Translations under genes and position numbers: made by a program | Notes under the pieces: model-generated | Told to the model about the DNA's origin: nothing | Seen by the model: only the letters and a program-made list of their open reading frames with translations | Databases searched by the model: none | Assembly (NCBI GenBank): GCA_017436525.1 | Contig: JAFSCX010000044.1 | Span: 1,267-65,266, forward strand | DNA from: Clostridia bacterium | Lineage (GTDB): Bacteria; Bacillota; Clostridia; Oscillospirales; QAKW01 | DNA: 64,000 nt | Reading direction: 5' to 3' | Shown: positions 1,183-34,226 of the stretch, one piece after another | How positions within the stretch are numbered: position 1 is the stretch's first letter | Layout of the letters: every line of letters starts with the position of its first letter

Positions 1183-1217
1183 AAAGGCTCTCCTTTGCGG
1201 GAGAGCCTTTCTTTTTT
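1183..1217. terminator. bidirectional intrinsic terminator
   Basis: AAAGGCTCTCC-tttgc-GGGAGAGCCTTT hairpin followed by CTTTTTT. It sits between the convergent 835-1179 (+) and 1216-10626 (-) genes. Confidence 0.8.
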
Positions 1218-10626: not shown

Positions 10627-11249
10627 GATTTATTCTCCTTATATTTTCTGTAGTATTCCTTCAGGACCGAGATCGGCCGCCCGATCTGTTTGGCGATTTC
10701 CGCATTGATTACGCCGGCCCGCACCATCTCCCACGCCTCATTTTTAAGCTGAGCCGCTTGATTTGCATGATAGGTCCGATCGGAATTTGCTTGATCCGCC
10801 TTAAACTGCCGATCTGCATTTTCCTTCTGCCAAGCAAAATCCCGCTGATCCGTCTCAAAGGAAAGCTTGCCCTGCTCCATTTCAATAATATTGGCCGATT
10901 TTTGAAGCTCACCCTCCGCTCGGGCCTGCTCTTTTTGAATCCCAAGCTGAGAGATCTGCCGATCCCGCTCCAGCAGAGCATTGGTACGATTGGTATTATA
11001 ATTTGCCGCAAGAGCTACCGCCGCGCTCTCAGAGGCACCGCCGGTGATCCCCGCAGCCTTTTGCGCTTGGGCCTGCAGCCTCTTTTGCCGCTCATTTTGC
11101 AAATATAGACTCTGCAATTGATCCGCCGCCGAATCTCTCACATCGCTGATCTGCGCATCATAAGCGTTGCCTTGCGCCGCCACGCTTTGATCAATGGCCG
11201 CATTTTTCTTTTTGTATGCCTCAATGAGGCTCTTATTGCTTACTGCCAT
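10623..11249 (-). CDS. Q/A/K-rich virion internal protein (hypothetical)
   Basis: Start chosen at MAVSNKSL (ATG 11249) behind AGGAGG, rather than the upstream ORF-track start. It overlaps the giant ORF by 4 bp. Coiled-coil-like composition. Its position corresponds to internal virion proteins of podoviruses. Confidence 0.5.
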   Translation of the reverse strand: MAVSNKSLIEAYKKKNAAIDQSVAAQGNAYDAQISDVRDSAADQLQSLYLQNERQKRLQAQAQKAAGITGGASESAAVALAANYNTNRTNALLERDRQISQLGIQKEQARAEGELQKSANIIEMEQGKLSFETDQRDFAWQKENADRQFKADQANSDRTYHANQAAQLKNEAWEMVRAGVINAEIAKQIGRPISVLKEYYRKYKENKS

Positions 11250-11251
11250 GT

Positions 11252-13417
11252 TTATTCCTCCTGCACATAATCCAGCCCCCATTGATTCAAAATGAGGGTT
11301 TTATTGATCAAATCGTTTGAAAAACGAAGCTTAAACCGTGTTGCTTTTTTGATTCTAATCTTGCGCTTAATATCTAAATTCTTCGGCGCCGTTGCATAGG
11401 TGAAGAATTGATAATCTATATCATCATAATCAAAGGAGCAAAGGGCGCCGTCATAATCAAAAAGAATCTTCCAATCCTCTTGATTTTTCTTTCCTTCCAC
11501 CCGTACTACCGAATCAACGCCCGCCAAAAGATCCGGAAGAAGCCCCAGCCTTCTGAAATTCTTTCTGAGGTAAAATTTCGTGCCGAGGATCCATGGCGTT
11601 TCCCAAAAAGCTTTGATCGCTGTTCCTTCGCCGGTGGAATTCACATCCTTATAGTGTTCCTTCTTTGTCCCATCGGTCCACTTTAGATGTCTATTATTTT
11701 TAACCATCATCAATTGACCATCTTCATCGATAAAAGCAAAATCAGCATCAAAGCCATCCATCCGATACCCTTCATATTGGTGGGCAGCGTAGGGCTTATC
11801 GCCTTCCGTATTCGGTTGATTCTCATCAAAGAGCCAGCAGATCCCGCTCTCGCAGAATACCAGCAAAAAGCGCCCCATCCCCAGCATAAAGCGAGGCCTG
11901 TCTGCAAGCATCTTTTTATCCACCGTAGCGGATCGATGCTCCGCATATCGCTCCGAATATTGATCCTTGGAGGTTACTGCGATCACCCCATCCTCCGAAA
12001 GATATACAAGCTCACCGCCGAAGACCTCTACATTTCCGATGTTAAGCGGTTTTGGCGCCGGTACAAGGTTGCCGACCGTAAAGAGCGCATCCGTCGCGAA
12101 TAAGCTTCCTTCTCCGTCGCTCACCTGCCCGCTCACAAAATAGATCCCCTTCTGCGTCAGTGCCACCAGATGATCGGCAATCCCCGAAAGCGCCATCACC
12201 TGCGATCCCTGCTCAAGATCAATATGGCTCGACTCCATAATATAGTAAGGATTCTCCATTTCAGAATAATAGATCTTGTTATTAAATTCTCCGCCGCCCA
12301 AAAATAATCGATCCTTGAAGCCCGCCACGCCATAGGTGGTCGCGCATTTTGCGGCGCAAAGATCATAAAAAGCCTTTCGAAAACCTTTTCTTATGTATGT
12401 AATCCTTACATTGTCCTGCCCTTCAATGGGGCTGGGGGGAATCTTATTGTTGTGTTCGGTGCCAATCTTATTTCCTTCTTCATCCTTGTTGCTTTCCGGT
12501 CGTAGCCAAAGATAATTTCCCGAAGCGCGATACCCATCAACCGTTTTGCCGCCGTCTTCAAAGGGCCTCCGCACCCATTTTGTAGTTTCACCATCCCCCT
12601 CTTCCACAGTGCAAGATACCAGCACCTCCACACAAAACACATCGTTGAGTTGCTCGCCTCTGTACACATCCGAATCTTCTTCCTCGGGCTCAAGTAGCAA
12701 GTCCGCATCCACCTCTCCTTGAAGATGAAACGTTGTCTCTCCCTGAATCACCTCTTCGCCGTTCACGATTACCGTTTTCTTTTTAACACAAAAGCTTTCG
12801 GTTACCCACGGGCTCAGAAGATTGATTCCTTCGAAAGGAGTGCCGCCGCCAAGGGGATCGCAGCCATGCATCACGATCGGAGTTTTAACATATTTATCGT
12901 CATATTTAATGCTATTACCATCATCAAAAAGAACCCATTTTTCCTCGTCTGCTCTGAATTCATAATAAGATAGATTACTGGAATATATCCTCACAATTCT
13001 CTCTTCAACAATTAGCATATCAGACGCAGTTTCGTTTTCGGCTGCAAAAACAAGAATTTTATCACCTTGCTCGAGTATAAGTGGTCTCCTCGCGTTCCTA
13101 AGGATCTGTTTCCATTTATTAATACCGTCGGAGTTGTACGAAAAATACACTACAAAAATTTTGTCGTCTATGCCTTGGACTACTTTACAGCAACCTTTTT
13201 CCTCAATCAATCGATAACTCCAGTTCTCAGGAGTAAATTCAGAAGAAATCGATGCATCTCCCGCATCCCACACACCGGGGCGCTTGCGGATCTGGCCCAC
13301 CGCACCGGGGATCATATTCAGCGAATCAGTGGCTCTGTAGAGATCGACCCGATCCTCCGGTACCGAGACATCGATTCCCCGAAATTGGTTGATTTTAATA
13401 GAGTTTTGCTCTGCCAC
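11252..13417 (-). CDS. large tail/nozzle-like structural protein (721 aa)
   Basis: Follows the adaptor-like gene in the structural operon. Its size and position correspond to tail tubular protein B/nozzle of T7-like podoviruses. No motif-level identification was made. Confidence 0.45.
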   Translation of the reverse strand: MAEQNSIKINQFRGIDVSVPEDRVDLYRATDSLNMIPGAVGQIRKRPGVWDAGDASISSEFTPENWSYRLIEEKGCCKVVQGIDDKIFVVYFSYNSDGINKWKQILRNARRPLILEQGDKILVFAAENETASDMLIVEERIVRIYSSNLSYYEFRADEEKWVLFDDGNSIKYDDKYVKTPIVMHGCDPLGGGTPFEGINLLSPWVTESFCVKKKTVIVNGEEVIQGETTFHLQGEVDADLLLEPEEEDSDVYRGEQLNDVFCVEVLVSCTVEEGDGETTKWVRRPFEDGGKTVDGYRASGNYLWLRPESNKDEEGNKIGTEHNNKIPPSPIEGQDNVRITYIRKGFRKAFYDLCAAKCATTYGVAGFKDRLFLGGGEFNNKIYYSEMENPYYIMESSHIDLEQGSQVMALSGIADHLVALTQKGIYFVSGQVSDGEGSLFATDALFTVGNLVPAPKPLNIGNVEVFGGELVYLSEDGVIAVTSKDQYSERYAEHRSATVDKKMLADRPRFMLGMGRFLLVFCESGICWLFDENQPNTEGDKPYAAHQYEGYRMDGFDADFAFIDEDGQLMMVKNNRHLKWTDGTKKEHYKDVNSTGEGTAIKAFWETPWILGTKFYLRKNFRRLGLLPDLLAGVDSVVRVEGKKNQEDWKILFDYDGALCSFDYDDIDYQFFTYATAPKNLDIKRKIRIKKATRFKLRFSNDLINKTLILNQWGLDYVQEE

Positions 13418-13952
13418 GTATAATCACCTTCGCTTTCTTCGTGGTATTCTTTGCCCGCTCCATCATGGCAATCTGATCATTATATTGCTGCATAAATACA
13501 TTGTAGGCCCGCGCCTCGCTTTCCAGCTCCCGATCTCTGGTAAGAGCGGCCACCCGATAGCAAAGGGCGTTATGGTATTCTCGCGGAAGCTGAATCACCG
13601 TCTCGCCGTCATCATCGTCAATTTCATTCGGGTAGGCTTTATAGTAAATGGTGTAGACGCCGTTTTCACTGCCATAGAGGGTAACACCCGGCACAAACCC
13701 TTCCGCCGTCTCCGCCAGCTCCTCTTCGTAGCTCCCGCCCTTTATTCTCTCAATGGCGTAGCAATCCTCCGGAAGAGCAATCGTCTCTCCGGCCTCAGCA
13801 CCGACCACCGTCTTTTTATGTATAAAGCCCCATTGGGTGGCGATCTCCCGCTGAGCACTATCGATCAGCCGATACATTCGATCATTATAATCGCTGACCC
13901 CCACCTCATCCAAAAGCCTCAATACCTGCGCTTCACATTCTGCCACTGTCAT
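13395..13952 (-). CDS. head-tail connector/adaptor (gp6-like) protein
   Basis: Start at MTVAECEAQVLRLLDE (ATG 13952) behind AAGGAGGA. The N-terminal pattern (..eAkaqlRl.d..) is typical of gp6-like head-tail connectors. It lies immediately downstream of the capsid gene. Confidence 0.5.
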   Translation of the reverse strand: MTVAECEAQVLRLLDEVGVSDYNDRMYRLIDSAQREIATQWGFIHKKTVVGAEAGETIALPEDCYAIERIKGGSYEEELAETAEGFVPGVTLYGSENGVYTIYYKAYPNEIDDDDGETVIQLPREYHNALCYRVAALTRDRELESEARAYNVFMQQYNDQIAMMERAKNTTKKAKVIIRGRAKLY

Positions 13953-14061
13953 AATAAAGATCCTCCTTGCCTTTATTTTCATATCAAAAGCGAGCCGCCG
14001 CTCCTCATATCAAAATAAAGGGCTTGTCCCTCCCGCTCAAAGGAGCGGGAGGGAACGATTC

Positions 14062-17217: not shown

Positions 17218-17823
17218 TTATTCCTCCTTGTAGTTATAATTGATGGTTGCATTGGTAGCACCCCAAGGAGCATTTGCTACCTCACCCTCCGCCCAGGGGA
17301 CGTTTATAACGGTTAGGTTATCGCATTTTTGAAAAGCGTTGCTTGCAATGCTCATCGGTGTACTCCTAAATGTTATATTTGTTAATCCTTTGCAACCGCT
17401 AAAAGCAAGAGAATATATTTTTGTAGTATTTAATTTTGTAAGTGCGATTTTCTCGCAACCATAAAAAGTCGCCGCGCAAATAGCACCTTGAAATTTCAGC
17501 AATTCCGTTAAAACAAGATTTTTGCAATTATAAAAGGCATACTCGCCAATCCATGTAATCTCGTTAATGCCCTCAACGCTTTCGAGATTTTCGTGGTTCA
17601 TAAATGCATATTGTTGTATACTTGTTATTCCCTCGGGCAAGGTAAAATGTGTTGCAGTTTTCCGCCAATACTCTTCCCATTGACTATCTCCACCGCCTGT
17701 TTGAATATTAGAGATTGCAGCAGGGAGATCGCCCACTAATATCAGGTCGCTTGTTCCGCTCTTCTCCCGAACTGCATCAGCAATGTCGGTCAAGGTTTTT
17801 TCTTGGATGATGTATGCACTCAT
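17218..17823 (-). CDS. BspA-type leucine-rich-repeat protein (virion appendage candidate)
   Basis: Repeats of the form I..I..YAF..C.NL (ITSIQQYAFMNHENLESV, ITWIGEYAFYNCKNLVLT, FYGCEKIALT, IYSLAFSGCKGLTNI, IASNAFQKCDNLTVI). AT-rich gene that overlaps the fibre-like gene by 4 bp. Confidence 0.7.
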   Translation of the reverse strand: MSAYIIQEKTLTDIADAVREKSGTSDLILVGDLPAAISNIQTGGGDSQWEEYWRKTATHFTLPEGITSIQQYAFMNHENLESVEGINEITWIGEYAFYNCKNLVLTELLKFQGAICAATFYGCEKIALTKLNTTKIYSLAFSGCKGLTNITFRSTPMSIASNAFQKCDNLTVINVPWAEGEVANAPWGATNATINYNYKEE

Positions 17824-19226
17824 ACACTCACCTCCTCAGCAAGAGTGAACGAACCGATAATATCCTCTTTAATCGTTACACGCTCATTTTCTAATATTTC
17901 TGCCAAGCGAGTAGGGCTTATAGCGGTTTTATCCTCCTGCTCTTTCGTCATGACCAGGGTTGCTTTTCGGGGGCAGCCCCCTTCAAATAGGTTTCCCGCC
18001 TTCCACATGGTTGCCGCAAGTTCTTGGTCGGCTAAATCATCAGGAAACGTGAAGGGGCTTGTCGCGGAATCTTTAACATACATCTGGGTTTCTTGCGAAA
18101 GATCCGGGAGACCCATATAGATATACCTGATTTCCGTTTCAGATACGATCTTTACATCATCGGAGGGGAGAGCGTAAGTGATTGCTTTTTCAGTAATATC
18201 CTCCTCATAAATTTGCGTAGGCGGGAAAAGAGAATCGATCACTTTTTCTTTGGTGGTCAGTTCTCCATCCTTCGATGAAACACTTCCGGCATATACTGCA
18301 TTGCCTTCCCAATCCAATGTATAAGCATTGGATCGTTCATCATCAGAATCGCCAGTGCCATTGCCCACAATATCAGCATATTTTTCATCAAAATCCTTCT
18401 CATTGAATTTTCCGGCCACTCGCTGTGCGTTAGATCCGGCATAAGTCCCTTCGCCTGTTTCAACCGAATTTTCACCGCTCCCTTTTCGAATTGGAAGCCC
18501 ATCCAACGCCTCCTTAACCCCTTTTCCGCTGATAGGATCCTCACTTTCGGCATTATAGGAGTCCCGCACAACATCCTTTCCAAGATAAGTGTTTTCAGCA
18601 TCTACCTTTTTAAGATAATCTGCCTCCGCGCTTTCTTTTCTCAGAAAGGCTTCGGAAGCCAATTGCTCAACCACAGATTCCCTTGGAAATGCAGTCAACC
18701 CAAACGGGTAGCTTAAATCCATCAATGCACTTTGAAATAAATACGAATAGCTGGTATAGAATAAATCCCCTGTATCTTTTGCTCTCAAAAATACTTTTGT
18801 ATTCTTTTGCTCTTCCGTTATATCATTAATGTTTTCAATCCCCATCGCTTGGGCTATAGCTATCGGTCCTACGATTCTCATCGATTCGCCGTTTGGAATG
18901 CTGACAAAAATATCGTTTTTTCTAAGATAATCCTTTTCTGCCGCTGTTTTTTCAAGATAAGTTTCTTTCGCATCACTTTTACTGAGATAAGCATTTTTAA
19001 TTCCATTGAGTACATTGGTAATCGCCCGCAGCCATGGTAAAAACACATGAAGGTTGATATAATCATAAAACTTTTTTACCCGCGCGCTTGTCTCTCCCTC
19101 AACGTAATCCTCCTGCTCTTGATGAAGGTAATCATTGATTTCACTTTTATCCACCGTAGCAATCGTTCCATCATCATTTTCAAAAGATTTGATATTATCG
19201 TCCAAGTTCTTCGCCTTAAGCGCCAT
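17820..19226 (-). CDS. tail fibre/appendage-like protein
   Basis: 468 aa. ..ADIVGNGTGDSDDERSNAYTLDWEGNAVYAGSV.. resembles the GNG..(x)RSNA.tldw.GN motif that recurs in phage fibre proteins. Located after the portal gene. Confidence 0.5.
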   Translation of the reverse strand: MALKAKNLDDNIKSFENDDGTIATVDKSEINDYLHQEQEDYVEGETSARVKKFYDYINLHVFLPWLRAITNVLNGIKNAYLSKSDAKETYLEKTAAEKDYLRKNDIFVSIPNGESMRIVGPIAIAQAMGIENINDITEEQKNTKVFLRAKDTGDLFYTSYSYLFQSALMDLSYPFGLTAFPRESVVEQLASEAFLRKESAEADYLKKVDAENTYLGKDVVRDSYNAESEDPISGKGVKEALDGLPIRKGSGENSVETGEGTYAGSNAQRVAGKFNEKDFDEKYADIVGNGTGDSDDERSNAYTLDWEGNAVYAGSVSSKDGELTTKEKVIDSLFPPTQIYEEDITEKAITYALPSDDVKIVSETEIRYIYMGLPDLSQETQMYVKDSATSPFTFPDDLADQELAATMWKAGNLFEGGCPRKATLVMTKEQEDKTAISPTRLAEILENERVTIKEDIIGSFTLAEEVSV

Positions 19227-23579: not shown

Positions 23580-24344
23580 TTACACATCTACAAGGCACTT
23601 CCAACGGGCCTCTCGGTCCGCCTTCTTTTTCTTTGGATCTATTATATATTTGAAGTAAAAGTACCCGTATTTGGTCTTTTTACTCTCAACCAATATGTAC
23701 CCCTTCGGAGCTCTCGGAGGCTTTTTCTCGTTGTATTCTCGCAATGCTACGGTTGCTTCCTCCCGCTCAGGACGCTTTGCGTTGCGCGTCATCTTCCATC
23801 GATGGCCACCCTGTTCCTCCGTCCAATGGTTAAAAAGGTAATTGGCAAGACCTGTATAATCCTGACCGTGGTCTACGCCTTTATATGTATTGTGTGCCCG
23901 AAGATTCACAATCCGCTTGATCTCTCCGCATTTCCACTTCTGCCCGATATATTCCGCAGGTATTCCCAAAGATACCATGTGGAAATGGATCCGCTCCGTG
24001 CTCTTACCACGTCCCATATAAAGAAAGATCACTGCATCAGGATATTTATACCGAAGCCGCCGCATATAATTGGCGGCGATCCGATCTGCATCTCTAAAAT
24101 CATGAACCTCGTGAAAATCATCAAAGGTTAGTGTGCTGTAGAGAGCTTTGGGTGAAAAATTTTCATTAAAAAGTCGGGTATGATTGCGTCGTGAGATCTC
24201 AACCCGATGTATTGCACGCTCTTCTTCATTTTCAAATCGGATCGTCGGCTCCGCTTTTCCAATATTTTTTGCTTTCGCCGAAATATGATAGACCTCCTGC
24301 TCACAAACACAGCCGGAAAATGTCCTTCTTTTTACCCTAAGCAT
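23580..24344 (-). CDS. HUH-superfamily rolling-circle replication initiator (Rep)-like protein
   Basis: Three ordered motifs: YSTLTFD (motif I, FxTLT-like), RIHFHMVSL (HUH) and GLANYLFNH (catalytic Tyr candidate). Confidence 0.55.
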   Translation of the reverse strand: MLRVKRRTFSGCVCEQEVYHISAKAKNIGKAEPTIRFENEEERAIHRVEISRRNHTRLFNENFSPKALYSTLTFDDFHEVHDFRDADRIAANYMRRLRYKYPDAVIFLYMGRGKSTERIHFHMVSLGIPAEYIGQKWKCGEIKRIVNLRAHNTYKGVDHGQDYTGLANYLFNHWTEEQGGHRWKMTRNAKRPEREEATVALREYNEKKPPRAPKGYILVESKKTKYGYFYFKYIIDPKKKKADREARWKCLVDV

Positions 24345-24385
24345 CCTCTCTTTTTCCTTTCCTTTAATAGCTCCTCAAAATGCCC

Positions 24386-24423
24386 TAAAATCCGCAGGGC
24401 CTTTCAGCCCTACGGATTTTTTA
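24386..24423. terminator. hairpin upstream of rep (terminator and/or origin candidate)
   Basis: AAAATCCGCAGGGC-ctttca-GCCCTACGGATTTTTT: an 11-bp stem with one mismatch, flanked by A and T runs. Confidence 0.55.
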
Positions 24424-24426
24424 GCT

Positions 24427-24756
24427 TTACGCCGTAGCTTTTCTCTGCTCCTTGCGGATCAATTTAATATCAGCTTTGTCCCATTTAATAGTTACTGTCC
24501 CGCCATGGGGAAGTGTGGCCGAAACCTGCAATAGCCGCCCTGTGCCAACATCCTCAATCAGATTCAGAATCATTTCAACAGATATCTCATCCAAAGGCTC
24601 AAAATCAATCTCTGCCTTTTGGCGGTTGATTAGGTCAAGGCTTTCTATCAAAATCCATTTAGGCACACCATCGCAATATGCTCTAAAATTGCCCGTATTG
24701 TTTTGATTTATAAAAATTTCGTTGTCCAAAGCCTTTACAATATCGTTATCGGTCAT
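24427..24756 (-). CDS. hypothetical early protein
   Basis: Start chosen at MTDNDIVKAL (24756) behind a GGAGG-like RBS. In an operon with neighbouring small ORFs. Confidence 0.4.
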   Translation of the reverse strand: MTDNDIVKALDNEIFINQNNTGNFRAYCDGVPKWILIESLDLINRQKAEIDFEPLDEISVEMILNLIEDVGTGRLLQVSATLPHGGTVTIKWDKADIKLIRKEQRKATA

Positions 24757-24937
24757 TGAACTCCGCCCTCCGCCAATTCGGCTTCTCGGTGAAGGAAACA
24801 CCCCTCACATCCGAATATTCGGGATCCGCCGCTTCGATCTTTTCCACCGCCTTCTCCAGATCCTCTGCAAAGACCGTTCCGGTGCGAACGAATTCACCGC
24901 CATTTTCATAAGTATAATCAATTACAAACTTATACAT
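24746..24937 (-). CDS. hypothetical early protein
   Basis: 63-aa ORF, overlapping its neighbours by a few nt (translational coupling). Confidence 0.35.
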   Translation of the reverse strand: MYKFVIDYTYENGGEFVRTGTVFAEDLEKAVEKIEAADPEYSDVRGVSFTEKPNWRRAEFNDR

Positions 24938-25385
24938 TTTTTTCCTCCTGAAATTGTTTCATTAATCTTTTCTCAATCTCATCCATTCCGCTCTCCTCAG
25001 CTGCAGCCTGATAATAGCTTTCAAACTGTTCGCCGAAGAGTGTGGAAGGTCTGAGATAGATCTTCATCTTCGGATCCCGCCCCCACGCATCATTGCAGGT
25101 GCGGATCACTCTCTTGAGATCTTCTACCGAATATCCTTCTGAAAGCCGGCGAGAGATCAAGAGCGCCGTTTCCGCATTTTCTGCCGAAAAACTCTTTTTG
25201 CAGATCCCGTTGAGGGCATCCAAAACGCTGCGAATCTCAACGCTGTAATTCGGAAACTCCTCTCCTGCCGGCTCCTTGGCAAGAGCACCAAGCACCCGCT
25301 CACAAGCGCGGATCAGCACTCCCGTCTGCCGATGCAGCCCCATAAGCTGCCGCTTCATCACCAAAACCTCATCTCTTAGATTCAT
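24930..25385 (-). CDS. phage conserved C-terminal (DnaD-like) replication-associated protein
   Basis: ..GYSVEDLKRVIRTCNDAWGRDPKMKIYLRPSTLFGEQFESY resembles the 'conserved phage C-terminus' / DnaD-like domain (..W......yl.P.TLF....FekY). Confidence 0.55.
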   Translation of the reverse strand: MNLRDEVLVMKRQLMGLHRQTGVLIRACERVLGALAKEPAGEEFPNYSVEIRSVLDALNGICKKSFSAENAETALLISRRLSEGYSVEDLKRVIRTCNDAWGRDPKMKIYLRPSTLFGEQFESYYQAAAEESGMDEIEKRLMKQFQEEKNV

Positions 25386-26027: not shown

Positions 26028-26239
26028 ACCGGCTCCACCTCCTCCATTCGAAAACTATGTAGGGCATTCTTGCCCTTCTCTAAAATATCGCAATAGGGCA
26101 GCTCCTTCCCGTCTCGATCCTTCCGATAGCCAACCGCCGCCACCGTTCCGGCAACGATCCGCTCATAGGTGGGCTCCTGTACCTTCGCCATCACCTTCCG
26201 GCCGGAAACCAACGCCGCCCGAAGTTCAAAGAATTCCAT
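26015..26239 (-). CDS. hypothetical early protein
   Basis: Start chosen at MEFFELRAAL (26239) behind AAGGAAGGA. Confidence 0.35.
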   Translation of the reverse strand: MEFFELRAALVSGRKVMAKVQEPTYERIVAGTVAAVGYRKDRDGKELPYCDILEKGKNALHSFRMEEVEPVWQE

Positions 26240-26675
26240 CGTATCCTTCCTTTCTGTCAAAAACTGTACCAATTACTTTGGCACGCTCCGCAAAGAAATT
26301 ATCAAGATCATCAGTTGCACCATTTTCCGTCCAAGCAACCTCAAAGCGACAAAGCGCATCATTCCAACGAACAATGAAATCTTCTCCTTCACCATCATCT
26401 CCGTAAAACCGGCAAATATCTCCTTCAAAGATAATTCCGCGCTTTGCCTTCATTCCGGTGCAGCTTCCTATTGTCTCCGGTATAACATTCCAGATTCGGC
26501 TCTTTTTGCCAAAATTTCGAATATAATAAACGGTTACCTCTCCTTTAGAGGCTACAATTCTTAAGTTACCTTTTACCCACCAACCTTTGATGAGTTGACC
26601 ATTTATGTAAATATTTTCTGATCCGCTTGAATCTTCATGAAATCCACGAAAAACAAATCTACTCTTTGAATTCAT
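26226..26675 (-). CDS. YopX-family phage protein
   Basis: ..VIPETIGSCTGMKAKRGIIFEGDICRF....VIGTVFD matches the YopX pattern (v.peTvgq.TGl.Dk.G..IyEGDI ... viGNi.d). Confidence 0.7.
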   Translation of the reverse strand: MNSKSRFVFRGFHEDSSGSENIYINGQLIKGWWVKGNLRIVASKGEVTVYYIRNFGKKSRIWNVIPETIGSCTGMKAKRGIIFEGDICRFYGDDGEGEDFIVRWNDALCRFEVAWTENGATDDLDNFFAERAKVIGTVFDRKEGYDGIL

Positions 26676-27696
26676 TCATTTCCTCCTTGATTCTTTTATC
26701 CATCGCAACGGATAGATTGTAACAATTTCCATGGGATATGTGATTCTTCCAAGCATTATAGGAAGCATTAAATTTATCTTTAGATAACCTTCCGCTCGCA
26801 ACCAACTTGGCCATTTTCAGATATTTGCGCTGGGCATTTCGCTTATTTTGATTTTTCAGCTTGCGGATCGCTCTGCCATTGGACGTTATATAGGTATGGA
26901 ATCCAAGATAATTAACCCCGTTTTTGAATGGAAATATTTGTGTTTTTTCGTTAAGCGTCAGATCCAGTGTTTTCAAAAACTCTGCGATCACCTCAAGGCA
27001 ATATTTCAGATATTCTTTGCTCGGATGTATTAAGTAGAAATCATCCATATACCTGCCGTAAAACTCTATTCCCAGTTCTCCCGTTATCAGCTTGTCCATG
27101 CCGTCTAAATACAACAGTGCCAAGCCTTGGTTGATCTGATTACCAAGCGGAAGGCCTTTGCCCTCGGTGCTATCAATAAAAAGATTGATCAACCAACAAA
27201 TATCTGGATCATACGAAAAATAAAAATCAACCATATCCTTTAATTGCTCATGGGAGATGTTATAAAAGAATTTTGAGATATCGCATTTAAGGATATAACC
27301 ACTTTTTTCATACCTACCGTAAAAAGCTCTCATCTGATCAGATAATCGATCAAGACCGAAGAGCGTTCCTTTCCCTTTTTGTCCGGCACAATTATCATAC
27401 AGAAACACCTCCTGCAGTTTCGGCAAGAGTACGTTATCGCAAAGGCTATGTTGTACAACCTTATCTTTGAAAGATGTTGTTTTAATGATCCGTTCTTTTG
27501 GCTCATACACCTTAAATTCATGATAATCAGATATCCGGTAGGTTTTATCTTTCAATTGCTGTATCAATGAATTAATTCCATCTAAGGCCATCACATTAAA
27601 CCTTGCGGCACTCTTTTTATAACCCTTGCCGCTTTTGGCTTTACGGTAAGCCTTATACAGATTGTTAAAGTCAATTACTTTCTCAAACTCGGTCAT
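26659..27696 (-). CDS. diversity-generating retroelement (DGR) reverse transcriptase
   Basis: 345 aa with RT motifs, including GLPLGNQINQGLALLYL (DGR-type I/LGxxxSQ-like motif 4) and YGRYMDDFYL (YMDD). It lies immediately 3' of an Avd gene and a TR that matches two VRs. Confidence 0.9.
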   Translation of the reverse strand: MTEFEKVIDFNNLYKAYRKAKSGKGYKKSAARFNVMALDGINSLIQQLKDKTYRISDYHEFKVYEPKERIIKTTSFKDKVVQHSLCDNVLLPKLQEVFLYDNCAGQKGKGTLFGLDRLSDQMRAFYGRYEKSGYILKCDISKFFYNISHEQLKDMVDFYFSYDPDICWLINLFIDSTEGKGLPLGNQINQGLALLYLDGMDKLITGELGIEFYGRYMDDFYLIHPSKEYLKYCLEVIAEFLKTLDLTLNEKTQIFPFKNGVNYLGFHTYITSNGRAIRKLKNQNKRNAQRKYLKMAKLVASGRLSKDKFNASYNAWKNHISHGNCYNLSVAMDKRIKEEMNEFKE

Positions 27697-27806
27697 ACAA
27701 CACGCCTTCTTTTTTGTTTATCCATACGGAAAGGCTGTATGTTCTTTTGATGAAGTGGTGTTCTGATTTCGGCTTTTGCCTACTCTGTCTGACGATCCAC
27801 CAATAC

Positions 27807-27871
27807 GGGCGCACGCCGTTATTGTTGTTGTAGTTGTTGTTATTGTTGATGTTGCCGCGGGGCGAGACACA
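27807..27871 (-). repeat. DGR template repeat (TR)
   Basis: Coding-strand sequence: TGTGTCTCGCCCCGCGGC AAC ATC AAC AAT AAC AAC AAC TAC AAC AAC AAT AAC GGCGTGCGCCCG. There are 22 adenines in the central 36 nt. The invariant flanks are identical to VR1 and VR2. Confidence 0.9.
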
Positions 27872-28268
27872 AAAAATACAACACACAGCCTATATTTAAT
27901 CTTTTTTTCTCTTTGCTCCTCCAAGCAATAGCCATATACTTAACATCAGAAGTAATCTTGGACCAATAAGATGCCGAATGATCCGCAAGCAACCCTAAAT
28001 TCATTGATAATTCAATAAAGAATAGCAGCTCATCGCAATAGGTTATAGCTCTCGTGATAGTTTCACAGCGTTGTCGCTTATCGGTAACATTATTGATCCG
28101 GTTCGCCTCAAAAAGCGTCTCGTAGATCTCCAAGCTCTTAATCTGAATCTTATCTACAAGAGAATGGCGATATTTCTTTGGATATCTATTGCAATTAGAT
28201 GTCAATTTGAAAGAATGTACCGCCAATTCCTTAGCCTTGACGATTACCTTCAATTCAGTATCTGCCAC
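27840..28268 (-). CDS. avd: DGR accessory variability determinant (Avd), four-helix-bundle family
   Basis: 142 aa with a GTG start. ..NRYPKKYRHSLVDKIQIKSLEIYETLFEANRI... resembles Avd and 23S-rRNA-IVS four-helix-bundle proteins. It lies between the targets and the TR, and its 3' end overlaps the TR. Confidence 0.8.
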   Translation of the reverse strand: MADTELKVIVKAKELAVHSFKLTSNCNRYPKKYRHSLVDKIQIKSLEIYETLFEANRINNVTDKRQRCETITRAITYCDELLFFIELSMNLGLLADHSASYWSKITSDVKYMAIAWRSKEKKRLNIGCVLYFLCLAPRQHQQ

Positions 28269-28273
28269 GATCC

Positions 28274-28813
28274 TCAGTCCTCACAAGATACAGAGATTGA
28301 AGATACAAAGCACAAAATCGGGCGCACGCCGAGACAGTCGTCGTTGCAGTCGCCGTCATTGAGGATGCCGCCGCGGGGCGAGACACAAAGTCGCCAAGAA
28401 GGATCACAGTGCGGCAGCGCAGTATCTGCAGTAGCAAGCCACCACCAATCATTTACCTTGTACATATCAAACAAATCAACATGCTTCCGGTAAAAATCAA
28501 AGGTCGGGATGCTGATTTTCGAATTTATTTTTCCATATCCTTTCAAGCCATCCAGCGTTGTAAGATCGGTTTCAAAATCACAAATATTTTCAGCACCCAC
28601 TTCTTTTTCGATCATTGGCAGAAACTCTTTATTCAGCCGTTCTAAAACCTTACTTTTTGAAAAATCATTGTTGCCATACTCAGATTTGAAAGCAACACCC
28701 TTTGCGACAACCGTAATTTTTCCATCATTATCCTCCATCTTGATGAAGGACTCTCCACCTACCCGGAAGGACTTTCCAATTTCAACTTCACTTAATTTAA
28801 CAGTATTTTTCAT
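28274..28813 (-). CDS. DGR target protein 1 (C-type-lectin/FGE-like variable C-terminus)
   Basis: Start at MKNTVKLSEV (28813) behind GGAGG. The C-terminus ..WWWLATAD....CVSPRGGILNDGDCNDDCLGVRP.. carries VR1. Paralogous to target 2. Confidence 0.85.
   Translation of the reverse strand: MKNTVKLSEVEIGKSFRVGGESFIKMEDNDGKITVVAKGVAFKSEYGNNDFSKSKVLERLNKEFLPMIEKEVGAENICDFETDLTTLDGLKGYGKINSKISIPTFDFYRKHVDLFDMYKVNDWWWLATADTALPHCDPSWRLCVSPRGGILNDGDCNDDCLGVRPILCFVSSISVSCED
28320..28387 (-). repeat. DGR variable repeat VR1 (68 nt, one codon longer than TR)
   Basis: Flanks are identical to the TR. All 14 substitutions relative to the TR fall at TR adenines. There is one extra GAC codon in the AAC run. 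Confidence 0.85.
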
Positions 28814-28814
28814 A

Positions 28815-29435
28815 TTATTTTTCCTCCACTTTAGATACAAAGATATTAGAATTTAAGATACAAAACGGGCGCACGCCGCTAATGATGTCGTAGCTGTCGC
28901 TATTGTGGATGCCGCCGCGGGGCGAGACACACTTCACCCATGAACTATTATCATGCTTCGGAGTGCTATATGCCGTAGCAGTCCACCACCAATCGTCGAT
29001 CTTATATTCATCCAGAAGATCAACATATTTTCTATAAAGATTTGCGGTAAGTAAAGACATTTTCCTTTCAATGCTGCCATAACATTTCAAACCATCATCA
29101 GCAGTCAGATTCACCGTATGTTTAATAAGGTTCTCCTCGCCGATGATCTTTTCGATCTCGCACCCAAAATCTTTGCAAATAGCATCTACATTTGAGCCAT
29201 CATAATTGTTGTTTTCACCAAAAAATTCACTATTACGATACAGAGCCTTAAGAATCACCGCCGCGGCATTTTCAGACTGCTCAAGTACGATAAATTCGTA
29301 GTCGCCAACCTTAAATGTTTTCCCTGCCTCAATATCCGCAAGTTTGATTTGCGTTTTTTCAAAGCTACGCTTGATCTCCTCAGCCTGCTCAGCGGTTAAT
29401 TCGATTTTCTTTCCGTTCAACATCATGTAATTCAT
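28815..29435 (-). CDS. DGR target protein 2 (paralog of target 1)
   Basis: 206 aa. The C-terminus ..WWWTATAY....CVSPRGGIHNSDSYDIISGVRP.. carries VR2. Confidence 0.85.
   Translation of the reverse strand: MNYMMLNGKKIELTAEQAEEIKRSFEKTQIKLADIEAGKTFKVGDYEFIVLEQSENAAAVILKALYRNSEFFGENNNYDGSNVDAICKDFGCEIEKIIGEENLIKHTVNLTADDGLKCYGSIERKMSLLTANLYRKYVDLLDEYKIDDWWWTATAYSTPKHDNSSWVKCVSPRGGIHNSDSYDIISGVRPFCILNSNIFVSKVEEK
28867..28931 (-). repeat. DGR variable repeat VR2 (65 nt, same length as TR)
   Basis: 10 substitutions relative to the TR, all at TR adenine positions. Flanks GTGTCTCGCCCCGCGGC and GGCGTGCGCCCG are identical. Confidence 0.9.
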
Positions 29436-29517
29436 TTTCTAAAACTCTCCTTGCAAATATTCTCCCCTCATGCTAAAATATACATGAGGTTCATTCTTGA
29501 CCGTTTGTCCTCGTTTC

Positions 29518-29550
29518 GCCGCTGAGCAGTTCCTTTGCTCAGCGGCTTTT
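29518..29550. terminator. GC-rich hairpin at the upstream edge of the DGR cassette
   Basis: GCCGCTGAGCA-gttcctt-TGCTCAGCGGC, with TTTT on the + strand and AAAA on the other side. Confidence 0.5.
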
Positions 29551-29551
29551 C

Positions 29552-29944
29552 TCATACAATCTCCAAAAATCCGGGGTTATCAATGGCATTGCCGATGATC
29601 TCAAAATTGGAAGATGGCTCTTCAAAGAAATTGATCTGCCGCCCATCCTTGGTCATCAGAGCAAACATTCCATCTTCCTCTGCATATTCCACCACTCCGG
29701 CAAGGCCTCTCTCCTTATCCAGGATAATATCCTGATCGAAGAGTACCCGCTCATCCTTTGCTTGCAACCCGCTGCAGGCGCATACCGTTTTCGGATCCAC
29801 CGGATAGCAGAATACCTTGTCCCCCTCAAAGCCGTAGATCGCAGGACCAATCTCCGGTACCGTCGGATGCTTCGGCAGATAATAGCCTTCCACCCATCCC
29901 TGCGCCGCCTTTCCGCGGCAAATCAAATGCTTCTTCTCGTTCAT
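29552..29944 (-). CDS. YopX-family phage protein (second copy)
   Basis: ..VDPKTVCACSGLQAKDERVLFDQDII....FEIIGNAIDNPGFLE fits the YopX pattern. Confidence 0.65.
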   Translation of the reverse strand: MNEKKHLICRGKAAQGWVEGYYLPKHPTVPEIGPAIYGFEGDKVFCYPVDPKTVCACSGLQAKDERVLFDQDIILDKERGLAGVVEYAEEDGMFALMTKDGRQINFFEEPSSNFEIIGNAIDNPGFLEIV

Positions 29945-30586: not shown

Positions 30587-30775
30587 TTAGCCTTCCACAC
30601 CATAAAGCTCATCCAAGGTGCACCCCAACGCCCTCGCCAACTCCGGCAGCTGCTTCGCACGAGGACTCCGCACACCGCTCTCCCACTGACAAACCGTTGT
30701 CTGCCCCACCTTCATCACTTGGGCTAACTCACTTTGAGTTAGCCCTTTTTCTTTTCGAATTTCTTTAATCCTCAA
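30587..30775 (-). CDS. Cro-like XRE-family HTH regulator
   Basis: TTG start (30775) lies 7 nt after AGGAGG. LRIKEIRKEKGLTQSELAQVMKVGQTTVCQWESG is a canonical XRE HTH. The longer ORF-track start was rejected. Confidence 0.75.
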   Translation of the reverse strand: MRIKEIRKEKGLTQSELAQVMKVGQTTVCQWESGVRSPRAKQLPELARALGCTLDELYGVEG

Positions 30776-30813
30776 GTCATCACCTCCTAAAAAGCAAAAT
30801 ATTCTTTCGCTCT

Positions 30814-30831
30814 GTGATATTAAAATATCAC
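30814..30831. promoter_or_regulatory. operator: perfect 18-bp palindrome overlapping the early-promoter -10
   Basis: GTGATATTAAAATATCAC. Related half-sites TTGTGATAT (30905-30913) and TTGTGAGAAT (30866-30875) are present. Minus-strand promoter: TTGACA (30845-30850), 17 nt, TGaTATTTT (-10 at 30822-30827). Confidence 0.65.
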
Positions 30832-30887
30832 GATATGAAAGATTTGTCAAGTATTTTATTTCGTTTTGTGAGAATTTTCTTTTTGTG

Positions 30888-30916
30888 TTGATTTGCTTCA
30901 CATTTTGTGATATTTT
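30888..30916 (+). promoter_or_regulatory. candidate repressor (cI-like) promoter
   Basis: TTGATT, 17 nt, TGaTATTTT (extended -10), with the -10 overlapped by the GTGATAT half-site. Confidence 0.5.
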
Positions 30917-30941
30917 TAGAATTATAAGGAGGCGAGTTATT

Positions 30942-31367
30942 ATGTTTGAAAAAAATCTCAAGCAATTACGAAAAGAAAGAAATCTCACCCAAACCGAATT
31001 GGCACTTCATCTTCGGGTTTCTCTGGGCGCTATTGGTAATTGGGAAGCAGGAAACCGTACACCCGATGCACAAATGCTTTTAACCATCGCTGACTATTTC
31101 GGCGTTTCTACAGATCGCCTTTTGCGTGATCCAAATTTCACAGACACCCCTTTCTCCCAAAAAGAAAAACGGTTGATCTCTGCATATAGAAATCAACCGG
31201 ATATTCAATTAGCGGTAGATCGGCTCTTGGGGGTTGATACCCCACTGAAATTAATATCGGAAAATAAAAGCGCGGCTTTGGGAGGAGACGAGACCCCAAT
31301 TATCTCCAATGCAAGTTCTAACGAAATTGCATCAACAATCAGAAAAATAAAAAAAGAAGGGGAATAA
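30942..31367 (+). CDS. CI/ImmR-like XRE-family repressor
   Basis: ATG 30942 behind AAGGAGG. MFEKNLKQLRKERNLTQTELALHLRVSLGAIGNWEAGNRTP is an XRE HTH, followed by a C-terminal extension. Divergent from the cro-like gene. Confidence 0.8.
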   Translation: MFEKNLKQLRKERNLTQTELALHLRVSLGAIGNWEAGNRTPDAQMLLTIADYFGVSTDRLLRDPNFTDTPFSQKEKRLISAYRNQPDIQLAVDRLLGVDTPLKLISENKSAALGGDETPIISNASSNEIASTIRKIKKEGE

Positions 31368-31373
31368 ATTAAA

Positions 31374-31961
31374 ATGAATTTAGCAGAATTAGCTCAGAAA
31401 TTATATTTCGACGCTAAAAAGAGAACCCCTTTTACAGTTTCACCAGAAACCTTTCGATCACTTGCCGAACATTCCTTTTATACCGAAGATGAAATTAACG
31501 AAATGATTGTGAATTGTAATTTTCATATATGGAGTAGACGAACAACGCGTTTCTTAGCAAGAGCAAGCGAATATGGCATTTATTTTTCATGCCGCAACAA
31601 AACCACCATATCTGAATTAAAAAGTGCCATGGAGCAAACTTCTTCCTTGTTAAAAAGCGAAATTTCAATAAGTGCACATTTAAGCACAATGGATATCCAT
31701 CATCAAGTTGACATCGAGCTTGATAATATCGCTCGCATTTACATTTATCATCAAAACCGAATTATTTATTCAAACAAGCACTTTTTTAATAAACATGGCA
31801 AAACGATCTTCGAAAAAGAAATTGCTCTGCGCAAAGAATTAGAGACCGAAGAAACTCAACGGATTGCAGCAGAGGGCGGCACTACCATTCCCGTAACCCC
31901 AAAAGTAGACGAAAATACTTTAGTCCAGCTATATAAAAAGGCTTCGAAAGAGAAAAAATAA
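31374..31961 (+). CDS. hypothetical protein (195 aa) in the lysogeny operon
   Basis: AT-rich ORF 6 nt after the repressor gene. No motif recognised. Confidence 0.5.
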   Translation: MNLAELAQKLYFDAKKRTPFTVSPETFRSLAEHSFYTEDEINEMIVNCNFHIWSRRTTRFLARASEYGIYFSCRNKTTISELKSAMEQTSSLLKSEISISAHLSTMDIHHQVDIELDNIARIYIYHQNRIIYSNKHFFNKHGKTIFEKEIALRKELETEETQRIAAEGGTTIPVTPKVDENTLVQLYKKASKEKK

Positions 31962-32759: not shown

Positions 32760-32774
32760 AAGGAGGTGAAAACT

Positions 32775-34226
32775 ATGGAAATCTTTGCAGGCTATATCCG
32801 CGTCAGCACTGATGATCAAACCGAATACTCCCCCGATAGCCAGATGAAGCTCCTGCGGGAACGCGCCGAAAAGGACGGCGGCATGATTCCGGAAGAATAT
32901 ATGTTCGCAGATCCCGGCATCAGCGGCAAGGATGCCGCCCACCGCCCCGAATTCAACCGCATGATTGCTTTAGCAAAGCAAAAAGATCCCCCTTTTCGGA
33001 GGATCTATGTTTGGAAATTCAGCCGCTTCGCCCGCAACCAAGAGGAAAGCATTGTATTTAAGAATATGCTCCGCAAAAACGGAGTAGAGATCGTCAGCAT
33101 CTCCGAGCCTTTAGTGGAGGGTGCCTTCGGCTCCCTGATAGAGCGCATTATCGAATGGCAAGATGAATATTACCTGATCAACCTTTCCGGCGAGGTAAAG
33201 CGCGGCATGATGGAAAAAGCAAGCCGCGGCGAGGCCATGTGCCGGGTATTCGGTCTCGATATCAAAGATCTCTCCTATGTCAAAAATGCCGATAACCCCC
33301 ATGTGGTTGATATCTTTGAATCCTTTGATCAAGGAGAGAACCTTCGCTCTATCGCCAAGCGTCTCGATGCCGCAGGGGTACGCACCCCAAGAGGAAACTC
33401 GCCCGATATTCGCTTTGTGGAATATATCCTTCGCAACCCTATCTATATTAAAAAGCTTCGATGGAGCTCCGAGGGAAATCCTTGCTCCAAGCGCCGCTAT
33501 GACGATCCAAACATTAAGATTTTCGATGCAAAAGCACCTCGCACGGTTTCCGATGAGCTTTTCTATCGAGTGCAAAAGCGCCTCGATGATCGCAAGGCAC
33601 TCTATGCCAGATCGGACCGCCCCAATACCGGCCGCCCTTGGCTCCTAAAAGGAATTGCCAAATGCGACTGCGGCGGATCCTTAGTGTTTGCATCTGCCAA
33701 AGAGCCCTCTGTTCAATGTAATAACTATAACCATATGCGCGGTTGCACCGTCAGCCACCATATTTCCCAAAGAAAACTGTTTGAATCCTTTGTAATCGGT
33801 CTTAGAAACTGCTGTGCCCTCGATCGCTACGATACCGATCCCGATGCACCTATCAAAAAAGCCTCCGAAAGCGCCCCCGCCGATTTTCAAAAACTCATCG
33901 CCGCCGAGGAGCGCAAGCTCGCTCGCTGCGCCGCCGCCTTTCAGGCCGGCATTGATACGATGGAGGAATACGCAAAAAATAAGGCCGAGATCCAAAAGCG
34001 AATCAACGCCCTTGAGCAGGAAGCTTCCCGCCAAGCGAATAAACTCTCCCCCGAATCAGCAAAAGCCGCCTCTATCGAGGATTACCGCACCCGCACCATG
34101 GCGCTGATCCACACCCTTGAAGATCCGGAGATCCCTATCCCCTTAAAAAACGATGCCACCCGCTCCCTGATCTCCCGCGTCGTCTTCCACAAACCGGATA
34201 ACACCCTATCCATCTTCTTCAAATAA
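32775..34226 (+). CDS. large serine recombinase (prophage integrase)
   Basis: ATG 32775 lies 8 nt after AGGAGG. AGYIRVSTDDQ carries the catalytic Ser motif of the resolvase domain. A recombinase/zinc-ribbon region (CDCGGSL....C..YNHMRGC) and a C-terminal coiled coil follow. It is the last gene before attR. Confidence 0.9.
   Translation: MEIFAGYIRVSTDDQTEYSPDSQMKLLRERAEKDGGMIPEEYMFADPGISGKDAAHRPEFNRMIALAKQKDPPFRRIYVWKFSRFARNQEESIVFKNMLRKNGVEIVSISEPLVEGAFGSLIERIIEWQDEYYLINLSGEVKRGMMEKASRGEAMCRVFGLDIKDLSYVKNADNPHVVDIFESFDQGENLRSIAKRLDAAGVRTPRGNSPDIRFVEYILRNPIYIKKLRWSSEGNPCSKRRYDDPNIKIFDAKAPRTVSDELFYRVQKRLDDRKALYARSDRPNTGRPWLLKGIAKCDCGGSLVFASAKEPSVQCNNYNHMRGCTVSHHISQRKLFESFVIGLRNCCALDRYDTDPDAPIKKASESAPADFQKLIAAEERKLARCAAAFQAGIDTMEEYAKNKAEIQKRINALEQEASRQANKLSPESAKAASIEDYRTRTMALIHTLEDPEIPIPLKNDATRSLISRVVFHKPDNTLSIFFK

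Follow-up and report, generated by a model that had tools for sequence, protein, structure and literature searches.

A diversity-generating retroelement with two tandem small targets of predicted lectin fold in the early operon of an Oscillospirales prophage

The 64,000-nt stretch of DNA analyzed here in full (hereafter, the window), from the assembly GCA_017436525.1 of a gut Clostridia bacterium (Oscillospirales, QAKW01; contig JAFSCX010000044.1, positions 1,267 to 65,266), contains a prophage that carries a complete diversity-generating retroelement (DGR), made up of two tandem target genes, a gene for the Avd accessory protein, a template repeat (TR) plus the gene for a reverse transcriptase (RT). 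Phage DGRs are usually read as tropism-switching devices. In this prophage, the entire cassette lies in the early operon and serves two small paralogous proteins predicted to adopt a C-type-lectin fold, and the same design, an early-operon DGR cassette serving only small soluble lectins, points to a common class in Oscillospirales prophages. The protein family is already known as a DGR target, and the cassette of the window represents a variation on a described system and no new kind. For the two targets themselves, we put at about even the chances that they are early-made, soluble, non-virion binding modules that act intracellularly on a variable host or competitor factor.

Adenine-Specific Divergence of Two Variable Repeats

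The cassette forms a tight minus-strand array in the order target 2, target 1, Avd and RT, with the TR carried by the 143-nt gap between the last two genes (Table 1). The RT displays the YMDD and LPLGNQINQ motifs and scores below threshold against the group II intron, Drt and retron RT models of NCBIfam, and the RTs found at the equivalent position in relatives share 57–83% identity with it. Avd matches phrog_3206, described as the Avd protein of DGR (E 1.3e-19), and further matches to NF033474 (E 2.5e-7) and bAvd (E 0.015) fall under their respective cut-offs. The start of target 1 was placed at an ATG located behind a GGAGG ribosome-binding site (RBS); the longest open reading frame (ORF), with a TTG start, would give 188 aa.

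A single 68-nt TR matches the 3′ ends of both tandem paralogous genes, in variable repeats (VRs) designated VR1 and VR2, and every difference in the core of these alignments coincides with a TR adenine (13 of 13 for VR1, with a chance probability of ~2e-8, and 10 of 10 for VR2, with a chance probability of ~2e-6). An earlier note, made from the letters of the window alone, had proposed two tandem small proteins of 179 and 206 aa as the DGR targets, and both the ORF and RBS calls and the match between TR and VRs bear this out. The alignment of VR1 with TR includes a 3-nt gap that was set in an AAC run, and the extra codon of VR1 can be placed anywhere in that run. In relatives, about one tenth of the VRs likewise differ from the TR by 3 nt in length (loci L015, L017, L027, and L034), and these differences possibly stem from RT slippage on AAC repeats or from a change in TR after the last homing event.

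The ends of the repeat, the 15-mer GTCTCGCCCCGCGGC and the 13-mer CGGCGTGCGCCCG, have three exact copies each in the 64 kb, and these are present solely in TR, VR1, and VR2. The DGR thus has two targets, and the search for repeat ends throughout the 64-kb window revealed neither a third VR nor a target in a structural gene. If read in frame, TR would encode CVSPRG-NINNNNNYNNNN-GVRP, and its ten AAY codons, together with one ATC and one TAC codon, confer a capacity of ~9e12 peptides per target. By the standard DGR mechanism, RT and Avd would copy the TR RNA into an adenine-mutagenized cDNA, which would then replace VR1 and VR2. Another direct repeat (D3), downstream of both VRs, was rejected as a separate DNA element, as it corresponds to the coding sequence of a conserved C-terminal ..FVS.. 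segment.

Sequence and Predicted Fold of the Target Proteins

The two targets share 44% identity over 177 residues (E 5e-46) and have common motifs, among them the layout that the earlier note had recognized in both paralogs, with CVSPRG and GVRP flanking the variable segment. The phage family phrog_9958, of unknown function, covers both proteins over their full length, with E-values of ~1e-34 to 1.1e-33 for target 2 and ~1e-31 to 3.3e-31 for target 1. In Pfam, target 1 scores 16.8 bits against DUF6273 (PF19789), under the 23.5 cut-off, and target 2 gives no match; many homologs at 60–67% identity bear a precomputed PF19789 match. Homologs differ mainly in the VR, and sequence entropy across them peaks exactly between CVSP.G and GVRP.

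The structure prediction suggested in the earlier note yielded confident AlphaFold (AF2) models of a lectin fold for target 1 (pLDDT 93, pTM 0.89) and for target 2 (pLDDT 91, pTM 0.82). Each model is a single compact alpha/beta domain, with the variable residues shaping a beta-hairpin between the invariant CVSP.G and GVRP segments; in target 2, this VR2 hairpin comprises strands 176–179 and 185–188. The N-terminus of target 2 adds a conserved hairpin plus helix of 27 residues (residues 1–27). Foldseek searches of a viral library returned DUF6273 phage proteins, at E-values as low as 4e-9, as well as DUF1566 proteins. In the PDB, the top match was the IgA peptidase of Thomasclavelia ramosa, which carries a DUF6273 annotation on its N-terminal domain, and further matches were the C-terminal domain of Legionella Lcl and classical C-type lectins, with Mtd, the DGR target of phage BPP-1, missing from the top 50 PDB fold matches. 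No credible sequence relatives of the targets were found in the PDB, and the DUF6273 domain of the T. ramosa protease, considered as a possible guide to function, provided no lead. The fold anticipated in the earlier note thus holds in part: models and fold searches agree with a C-type-lectin-like variable domain closed by GVRP, but not with its FGE-like alternative, since the family is DUF6273 and not FGE-sulfatase.

A simple hydropathy test detected no signal peptide or transmembrane segment in either target, in line with the earlier reading of the sequence, the maximum 19-residue Kyte–Doolittle means of the two proteins being 1.38 and 0.99 (pI ~5). The models, being single-domain, likewise contain no fibre-like N-terminal domain, as had been claimed. 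Moreover, no Ig-like domains are present in the targets, and the VR is C-terminal, unlike in the tentaclin layout. Both targets are, by these predictions, single-domain soluble C-type-lectin-fold proteins of ~180–200 aa that belong to the DUF6273/phrog_9958 family.

Conservation of the Early-Module Position in Relatives

Homologs of the targets are abundant (>1,400 for target 2 and 340 for target 1), and at least 152 loci in species-representative genomes encode a relative, the hosts being Oscillospiraceae, Acutalibacteraceae, Faecousia, Congzhengia, Ruminococcus, and other Clostridia metagenome-assembled genomes, from animal and human guts. Architecture was counted in the best 80 of these 152 loci, and 58 of the 80 display the order target 2, target 1, Avd, RT. 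In IMG/VR, Avd and RT lie directly downstream in 47 of 79 loci, and 49 of the 79 contain two or more target homologs. Where relatives have an RT, one TR matches both paralogs, with mismatches biased toward adenines.

Gene neighborhoods were scanned with Pfam and PHROGs in 47 dereplicated viral loci; the three ORFs flanking the block on either side were taken, which gave 130 ORFs upstream and 137 downstream. The commonest neighbors are SSB (12), rolling-circle Rep (7), DNA methylases, RecT/Sak/YqaJ, replisome organiser, Prim-Pol, HTH/cro, antirepressor (ANT), and PcfJ/DUF3102 genes, and G39P, ligase, and dUTPase genes occur there as well. Among the 25 commonest families on each side, only one Prophage_tail ORF and two cell-wall-hydrolase (Hydrolase_2) ORFs fall outside DNA metabolism and regulation. 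In three more prophages, with tyrosine integrases and different replication modules, the target pair is again found directly after the repressor/cro switch. The position of the target family in the early/DNA-metabolism module is conserved across dozens of unrelated phages, and the family occurs alongside different virion types, integrases, and replication modules.

In one related prophage (L184, 10001–11749), cro is followed by a row of three small genes, of 202, 195, and 178 aa; the 10 kb downstream of them yielded no RT call, indicating that targets persist without an adjacent DGR. Most of the seemingly long target ORFs in relatives proved to be artefacts of taking the longest ORF, and an apparent N-terminal extension in locus L077, matching phrog_9820 (unknown function), was set aside.

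Among named phages, a tblastn search with target 2 identified one gene each in the Faecalibacterium phages FP_Brigit, FP_Toutatis, and Lelie, and in nd4 and nd12, at 27–30% identity over 81–93% of target 2 (E 4e-15 to 1e-6; the nd4 match, at 30935–31492, has E 4e-15). In these phages the search found only the early gene, and never the Hoc-like or tentaclin target. The FP_Brigit homolog, gp06 (3948–4559 of the record), comes after cro and a regulator and before exonuclease and RecT genes; the nd4 homolog, tgt2, is placed before PolIII-exonuclease, SSB, and DnaC genes; and the FP_Toutatis homolog, gp24, lies among early genes, upstream of Rep. FP_Brigit is a myovirus, with a tail sheath, and its DGR follows the tail-fibre genes and adjoins the Hoc-like target; nd4 also has a tail sheath, according to its description (PMC10743442). 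The FP_Brigit gp06 gene, annotated as hypothetical, matches the Brigit TR (~45.5 kb of the record) over 80 nt, with seven of nine differences at adenines, and this adenine-biased match identifies gp06 as a remote second target, located ~41 kb from the TR. A preprint likewise reports a remote target for Toutatisvirus, at 17.5 kb from the TR (10.1101/2024.10.15.618418). The existence of cases with adjacent and with remote RTs, in phages with differing virions, hence indicates that the small early-region lectin is diversified by DGRs whatever the distance to the RT or the type of virion.

A Sister Clade Fused to MazG

Homologs in loci L079 (2972–3832) and L080 (9573–10409) carry a C-terminal extension of ~100 residues. 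A direct Pfam scan of both extensions provided no identification; PHROGs assigns them to two distinct families of MazG-like NTP pyrophosphohydrolases (E 2e-23 and 4e-20). When the L080 protein was searched against a database, over 100 clusters of ~280 aa were retrieved that span its full length, which carry precomputed DUF6273 and MazG matches and include one with the NCBI name “MazG-like family protein.” The lectin domain of these proteins has 31–36% identity to targets 1 and 2 and retains WWWLATP and GVRP, and their genes occupy the same spot of the early region, after methylases and before SSB or Rep (including loci L168–L172). MazG enzymes act on cytoplasmic nucleotides, and the lectin domain of this clade can hence be placed in the cytoplasm, at least in those fusion proteins.

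In the P0241 subgroup (clade P0241–P0360), nearly all residues in the variable columns are ones that AAY codons can give rise to, a pattern that suggests DGR targeting with an internal VR; in a second MazG-fused subgroup, the variable columns contain K, E, Q, W, and M. No RT was found within 10 kb of the MazG-fused genes in 16 loci, and no TR-like copy in L079 or L080, so that we infer DGR targeting of this clade from the residue pattern only.

Organization of the Prophage

The prophage begins with the serine integrase, and the divergent cI-like and Cro-like HTH genes come next. The Cro-like gene is the first of the leftward early operon that holds the cassette. From it, the leftward order is cro, two small ORFs, a YopX-family gene, the DGR cassette, a second YopX-family gene, small ORFs, and replication genes; then small and large terminase, P22-type portal, a 468-aa protein (17820–19226), an LRR_5 protein, endolysin, and capsid; and, at the end, an SU10-type adaptor (13395–13982), a protein weakly similar to T7 gp14, and a 3136-aa LPD38 polyvalent protein. 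Within the replication segment, a Phg_2220_C replication protein precedes Rep; the replication genes lie at 24930–25385 and 23580–24344. The placement of the targets between the lysogeny switch and the replication genes, and their remoteness from the virion module, both stated in the earlier note, were corroborated: the pair of HTH genes spans 30587–31367 and the replication genes 23580–25385, terminase, portal, LRR protein, and capsid span 22.9–13.4 kb of the window, and the nearest virion gene lies ~9 kb downstream of the cassette.

Table 1. Features of the DGR cassette and of the surrounding prophage region, in window coordinates.
Feature	Position	Strand	Description
DGR target 2	28815..29435	-	206 aa, single DUF6273 domain of predicted C-type-lectin fold; ORF and RBS
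VR2	28866..28933	-	encodes CVSPRG-GIHNSDSYDIIS-GVRP
DGR target 1	28274..28813	-	179 aa, paralog of target 2; ORF and RBS
VR1	28319..28389	-	71 nt, exceeds TR by one codon
Avd accessory protein	27840..28268	-	142 aa; 3′ end overlaps TR
Template repeat (TR)	27806..27873	-	68 nt, 22 A
DGR reverse transcriptase (RT)	26659..27696	-	345 aa; RVT_1 E 7.5e-17
G+C-rich hairpin	29518..29546		12 bp (8 G-C pairs); inside 116-nt gap upstream of target 2
YopX-family early gene	29552..29944	-	PF09643 E 2.3e-5; just upstream of cassette
Second YopX-family gene	26226..26675	-	PF09643 E 2.2e-6; just downstream of RT
Cro-like HTH	30587..30775	-	62 aa; HTH_3 family, RstR/DicA-type matches
cI-like HTH repressor	30942..31367	+	141 aa, divergent from cro
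Large serine recombinase (prophage integrase)	32766..34226	+	Resolvase and Recombinase Pfam matches
Replication initiation protein (Rep)	23580..24344	-	phrog_3584 E 1.9e-35; downstream edge of early region

The hairpin in the 116-nt gap stands between the first YopX-family gene and target 2. Its T-run occurs on the plus strand only, antisense to all local genes, and the hairpin cannot therefore serve to terminate the early transcript. Just upstream of the hairpin, a promoter-like site is found on the plus strand (29451–29479). No minus-strand sigma-70-like promoter was found in this gap, and a separate promoter for the cassette was accordingly rejected. The two YopX-family genes bracket the cassette, as if it had been inserted between duplicated genes; next to the cassettes of relatives YopX is infrequent (2 of 137 downstream ORFs).

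Judging by its sequence matches (P22 portal, SU10 adaptor, and weak T7 gp14 match), the virion module looks podovirus-like. It includes a 201-aa BspA-type LRR_5 protein (17218–17823, minus strand) that has no VR and is the most plausible receptor-binding candidate of the window phage. The 3136-aa ORF of the LPD38 “large polyvalent protein” (1216–10626, minus strand) closes the module, coming after the weak T7 gp14-like protein (10623–11282) and a 721-aa protein, and may encode a giant internal or ejected protein.

Function of the Target Proteins

In the intracellular model, target 1 and target 2 would not be virion parts. Their genomic context suggests that they would be produced early after infection or induction, and that they could work as adjustable cytoplasmic binders of a variable host or competitor factor, in host takeover or counter-defence. 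Linkage between genotype and phenotype would be kept, given that each variant gene would be expressed from the genome carrying it. This model is favored because it is the early module, and no virion module, that the gene accompanies, because the targets have no anchor domain, because they coexist with virions of podovirus-like and myovirus type and with integrases and replication modules of several kinds, and because their sister clade carries a fused cytoplasmic enzyme. Between the two roles contemplated in the earlier note, that of a virion adaptor and that of an intracellular binder, the early position, the varied virions, and the MazG fusion hence tip the evidence toward the latter, neither role being proven; the novelty that the note attributed to an intracellular, non-adsorption role was overstated, since small DUF6273-only targets and a non-structural target of Quimbyvirus have been published. 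More tentatively, and at somewhat less than even chances, the model may be extended to a widespread class of phage DGRs, in which those of gut Clostridia phages would constitute an antibody-like intracellular repertoire of stand-alone or MazG-fused lectin domains, first expressed after the lysogeny switch and hypermutated against host-defence or competitor-phage proteins, with counter-defence or host takeover, and not adsorption, as the selected function.

Several observations weigh against intracellular action, and many of them speak at the same time for its main rival, which we consider rather unlikely: that the targets are small lectins docked onto the capsid or tail of the virion, similar to Mtd or tentaclin but devoid of a built-in anchor, and that the DGR switches tropism or adherence to mucus or glycans. 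Elsewhere, DUF6273 is mostly extracellular or virion-borne, being known in tentaclin and Hoc-like proteins, in receptor-binding proteins and in a secreted IgA protease, and a variable hairpin on a C-type-lectin fold is the surface by which DGR targets classically bind ligands. The authors who described nd4_tgt2 and nd12_tgt2 guessed an Mtd-like receptor-binding role for them (PMC10743442). The TR that serves the small protein diversifies a capsid or tentacle protein as well in Brigit, Toutatis, and nd4, a single TR serving in Brigit both the Hoc-like protein and the small one, and this sharing could mean that both proteins bind the same kind of external ligand. The N-terminal hairpin plus helix of target 2 could provide a docking element, proteins with no signal peptide could still be built into virions or set free at lysis, and the MazG fusions belong to a sister clade and not to targets 1 and 2 themselves. 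Nonetheless, in dozens of phages the gene keeps to the early/DNA-metabolism module and is never seen in the virion module, and its association with both podovirus-like and myovirus modules makes a conserved docking partner unlikely. The lack of an anchor domain, the fusion of the sister clade to a cytoplasmic enzyme, and the absence of Mtd from the top 50 PDB fold matches also argue against a virion adaptor.

According to a further explanation, in our estimate improbable, soluble lectins made from their own promoter, and not as early lytic genes, would operate either in the lysogen or, once cells have lysed, outside them; they might mask receptors, bind matrix or host-animal glycans, or serve the lysogen. 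Separate regulation could be provided by the 116-nt gap and the strong hairpin before target 2, and a 2026 preprint reports that tentaclins, lectins targeted by prophage DGRs, occur in bacterial vesicles in the absence of particles; against this stand the lack of a promoter-like site on the minus strand of that gap, the lack of a secretion signal in the targets, the cytoplasmic setting to which the MazG fusions point, and the weak genotype–phenotype linkage of a freely released protein, which would make DGR selection inefficient. A last point to be set against the intracellular model concerns the activity of the DGR itself. Four other metagenome contigs (L004–L007) carry a cassette (26600–29500) that is 100% identical, both VRs included, and the exact target proteins are found on 11–14 contigs. 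At the consensus level, no sign of recent diversification is visible among the five identical assemblies, and current activity is unproven. On this basis, the VRs might be seen as the record of past mutagenesis by a decaying or silent DGR, with proteins now fixed in function, a view also compatible with a VR1 whose length no longer equals that of TR and with the retention of targets without a nearby RT in some relatives and, according to the preprint, in Toutatisvirus (10.1101/2024.10.15.618418). We regard it as very improbable: RT, with its YMDD motif retained, Avd, and both targets are intact, the differences between TR and VRs all fall at adenines, with no decay at other bases, and most related prophages conserve the cassette. 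Furthermore, the identity of VR1 and VR2 in five independent assemblies is that of consensus sequences, in which minority variants would be hidden.

Should the targets function intracellularly, DGRs would influence host range in part after DNA entry, and nature would here provide intracellular binders that can be programmed. With cultured Faecalibacterium phages, in which the homologs gp06 and gp24 occupy this position and are DGR targets too, it becomes directly testable whether phage DGRs diversify intracellular proteins, and it is this that lends interest to the finding.

Comparison with Known Systems

Large surveys have found viral DGR targets to be mainly tail proteins and have tied DGRs to host range through adsorption (PMC8144416; PMC12636319). 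In the archetypal system of BPP-1 (Mtd-Avd-TR-Brt), the logic of target, Avd, TR, and RT, the adenine mutagenesis, and the C-terminal variable surface on a C-type-lectin domain are like those of the window. Mtd, however, is a 381-aa virion protein whose gene lies with those of the tail and whose N-terminal beta-prism and beta-sandwich domains anchor a trimer to the tail fibre, and the targets of the window share neither this gene location nor these anchor domains. Tentaclin has an N-terminal C-type-lectin domain, followed by Ig-like domains and a C-terminal anchor motif, a layout that the window targets do not show.

The closest known systems are small DUF6273-only targets of gut Clostridia phages, described for nd4 and nd12 (PMC10743442), Lelie and CP11 (PMC11792537), and Toutatisvirus (10.1101/2024.10.15.618418). 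Like nd4_tgt2, nd12_tgt2, and the targets of Lelie, CP11, and FP_Toutatis (gp24), those of the window are single C-type-lectin domains with the VR at a C-terminal hairpin, encoded in the early/replication region. In these published loci, the small protein is a second and often remote target beside a tentaclin or Hoc-like virion protein, and the RT lies near structural or lysis genes; in the window, by contrast, the entire cassette resides in the early operon, with two tandem small paralogs and no structural target. Co-targeting with a tentaclin or Hoc-like protein, absent in the window, is a feature of the published loci and does not define the protein family. The accessible parts of these papers propose receptor binding and do not discuss the early-module position (PMC10743442; PMC11792537; 10.1101/2024.10.15.618418). 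In papers on DUF6273 and in searches on DGRs in connection with MazG or counter-defence, no mention was found of an early-operon cassette serving only two tandem small paralogs, of a systematic early-module position of DGR targets, of FP_Brigit gp06 as a remote target in that same early position, or of a MazG-fused DUF6273 clade.

Precedents for DGR targets with non-structural roles are found in other systems. The second target of the Quimbyvirus DGR is a C-type-lectin protein whose gene, distant from the structural ones, has nuclease, methyltransferase, and tRNA-ligase genes around it (PMC8008677), and its authors proposed a role in phage–host conflict, in line with this defence/counter-defence neighborhood (Benler et al., 2021; PMC8008677). 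The likeness to the window is one of described gene context, Quimbyvirus being a Bacteroides phage that also has a structural target and a frameshifted RT. Among cellular DGRs, targets fused to intracellular signaling or conflict domains, such as the cyanobacterial kinase or STAND-type proteins, are reported in work cited by the same study (refs 119 and 120 of PMC8008677), and they set a precedent for DGR-diversified C-type-lectin domains inside cells. These cellular targets are multidomain proteins, whereas those of the window are phage-encoded stand-alone domains, with fusion to MazG in the sister clade.

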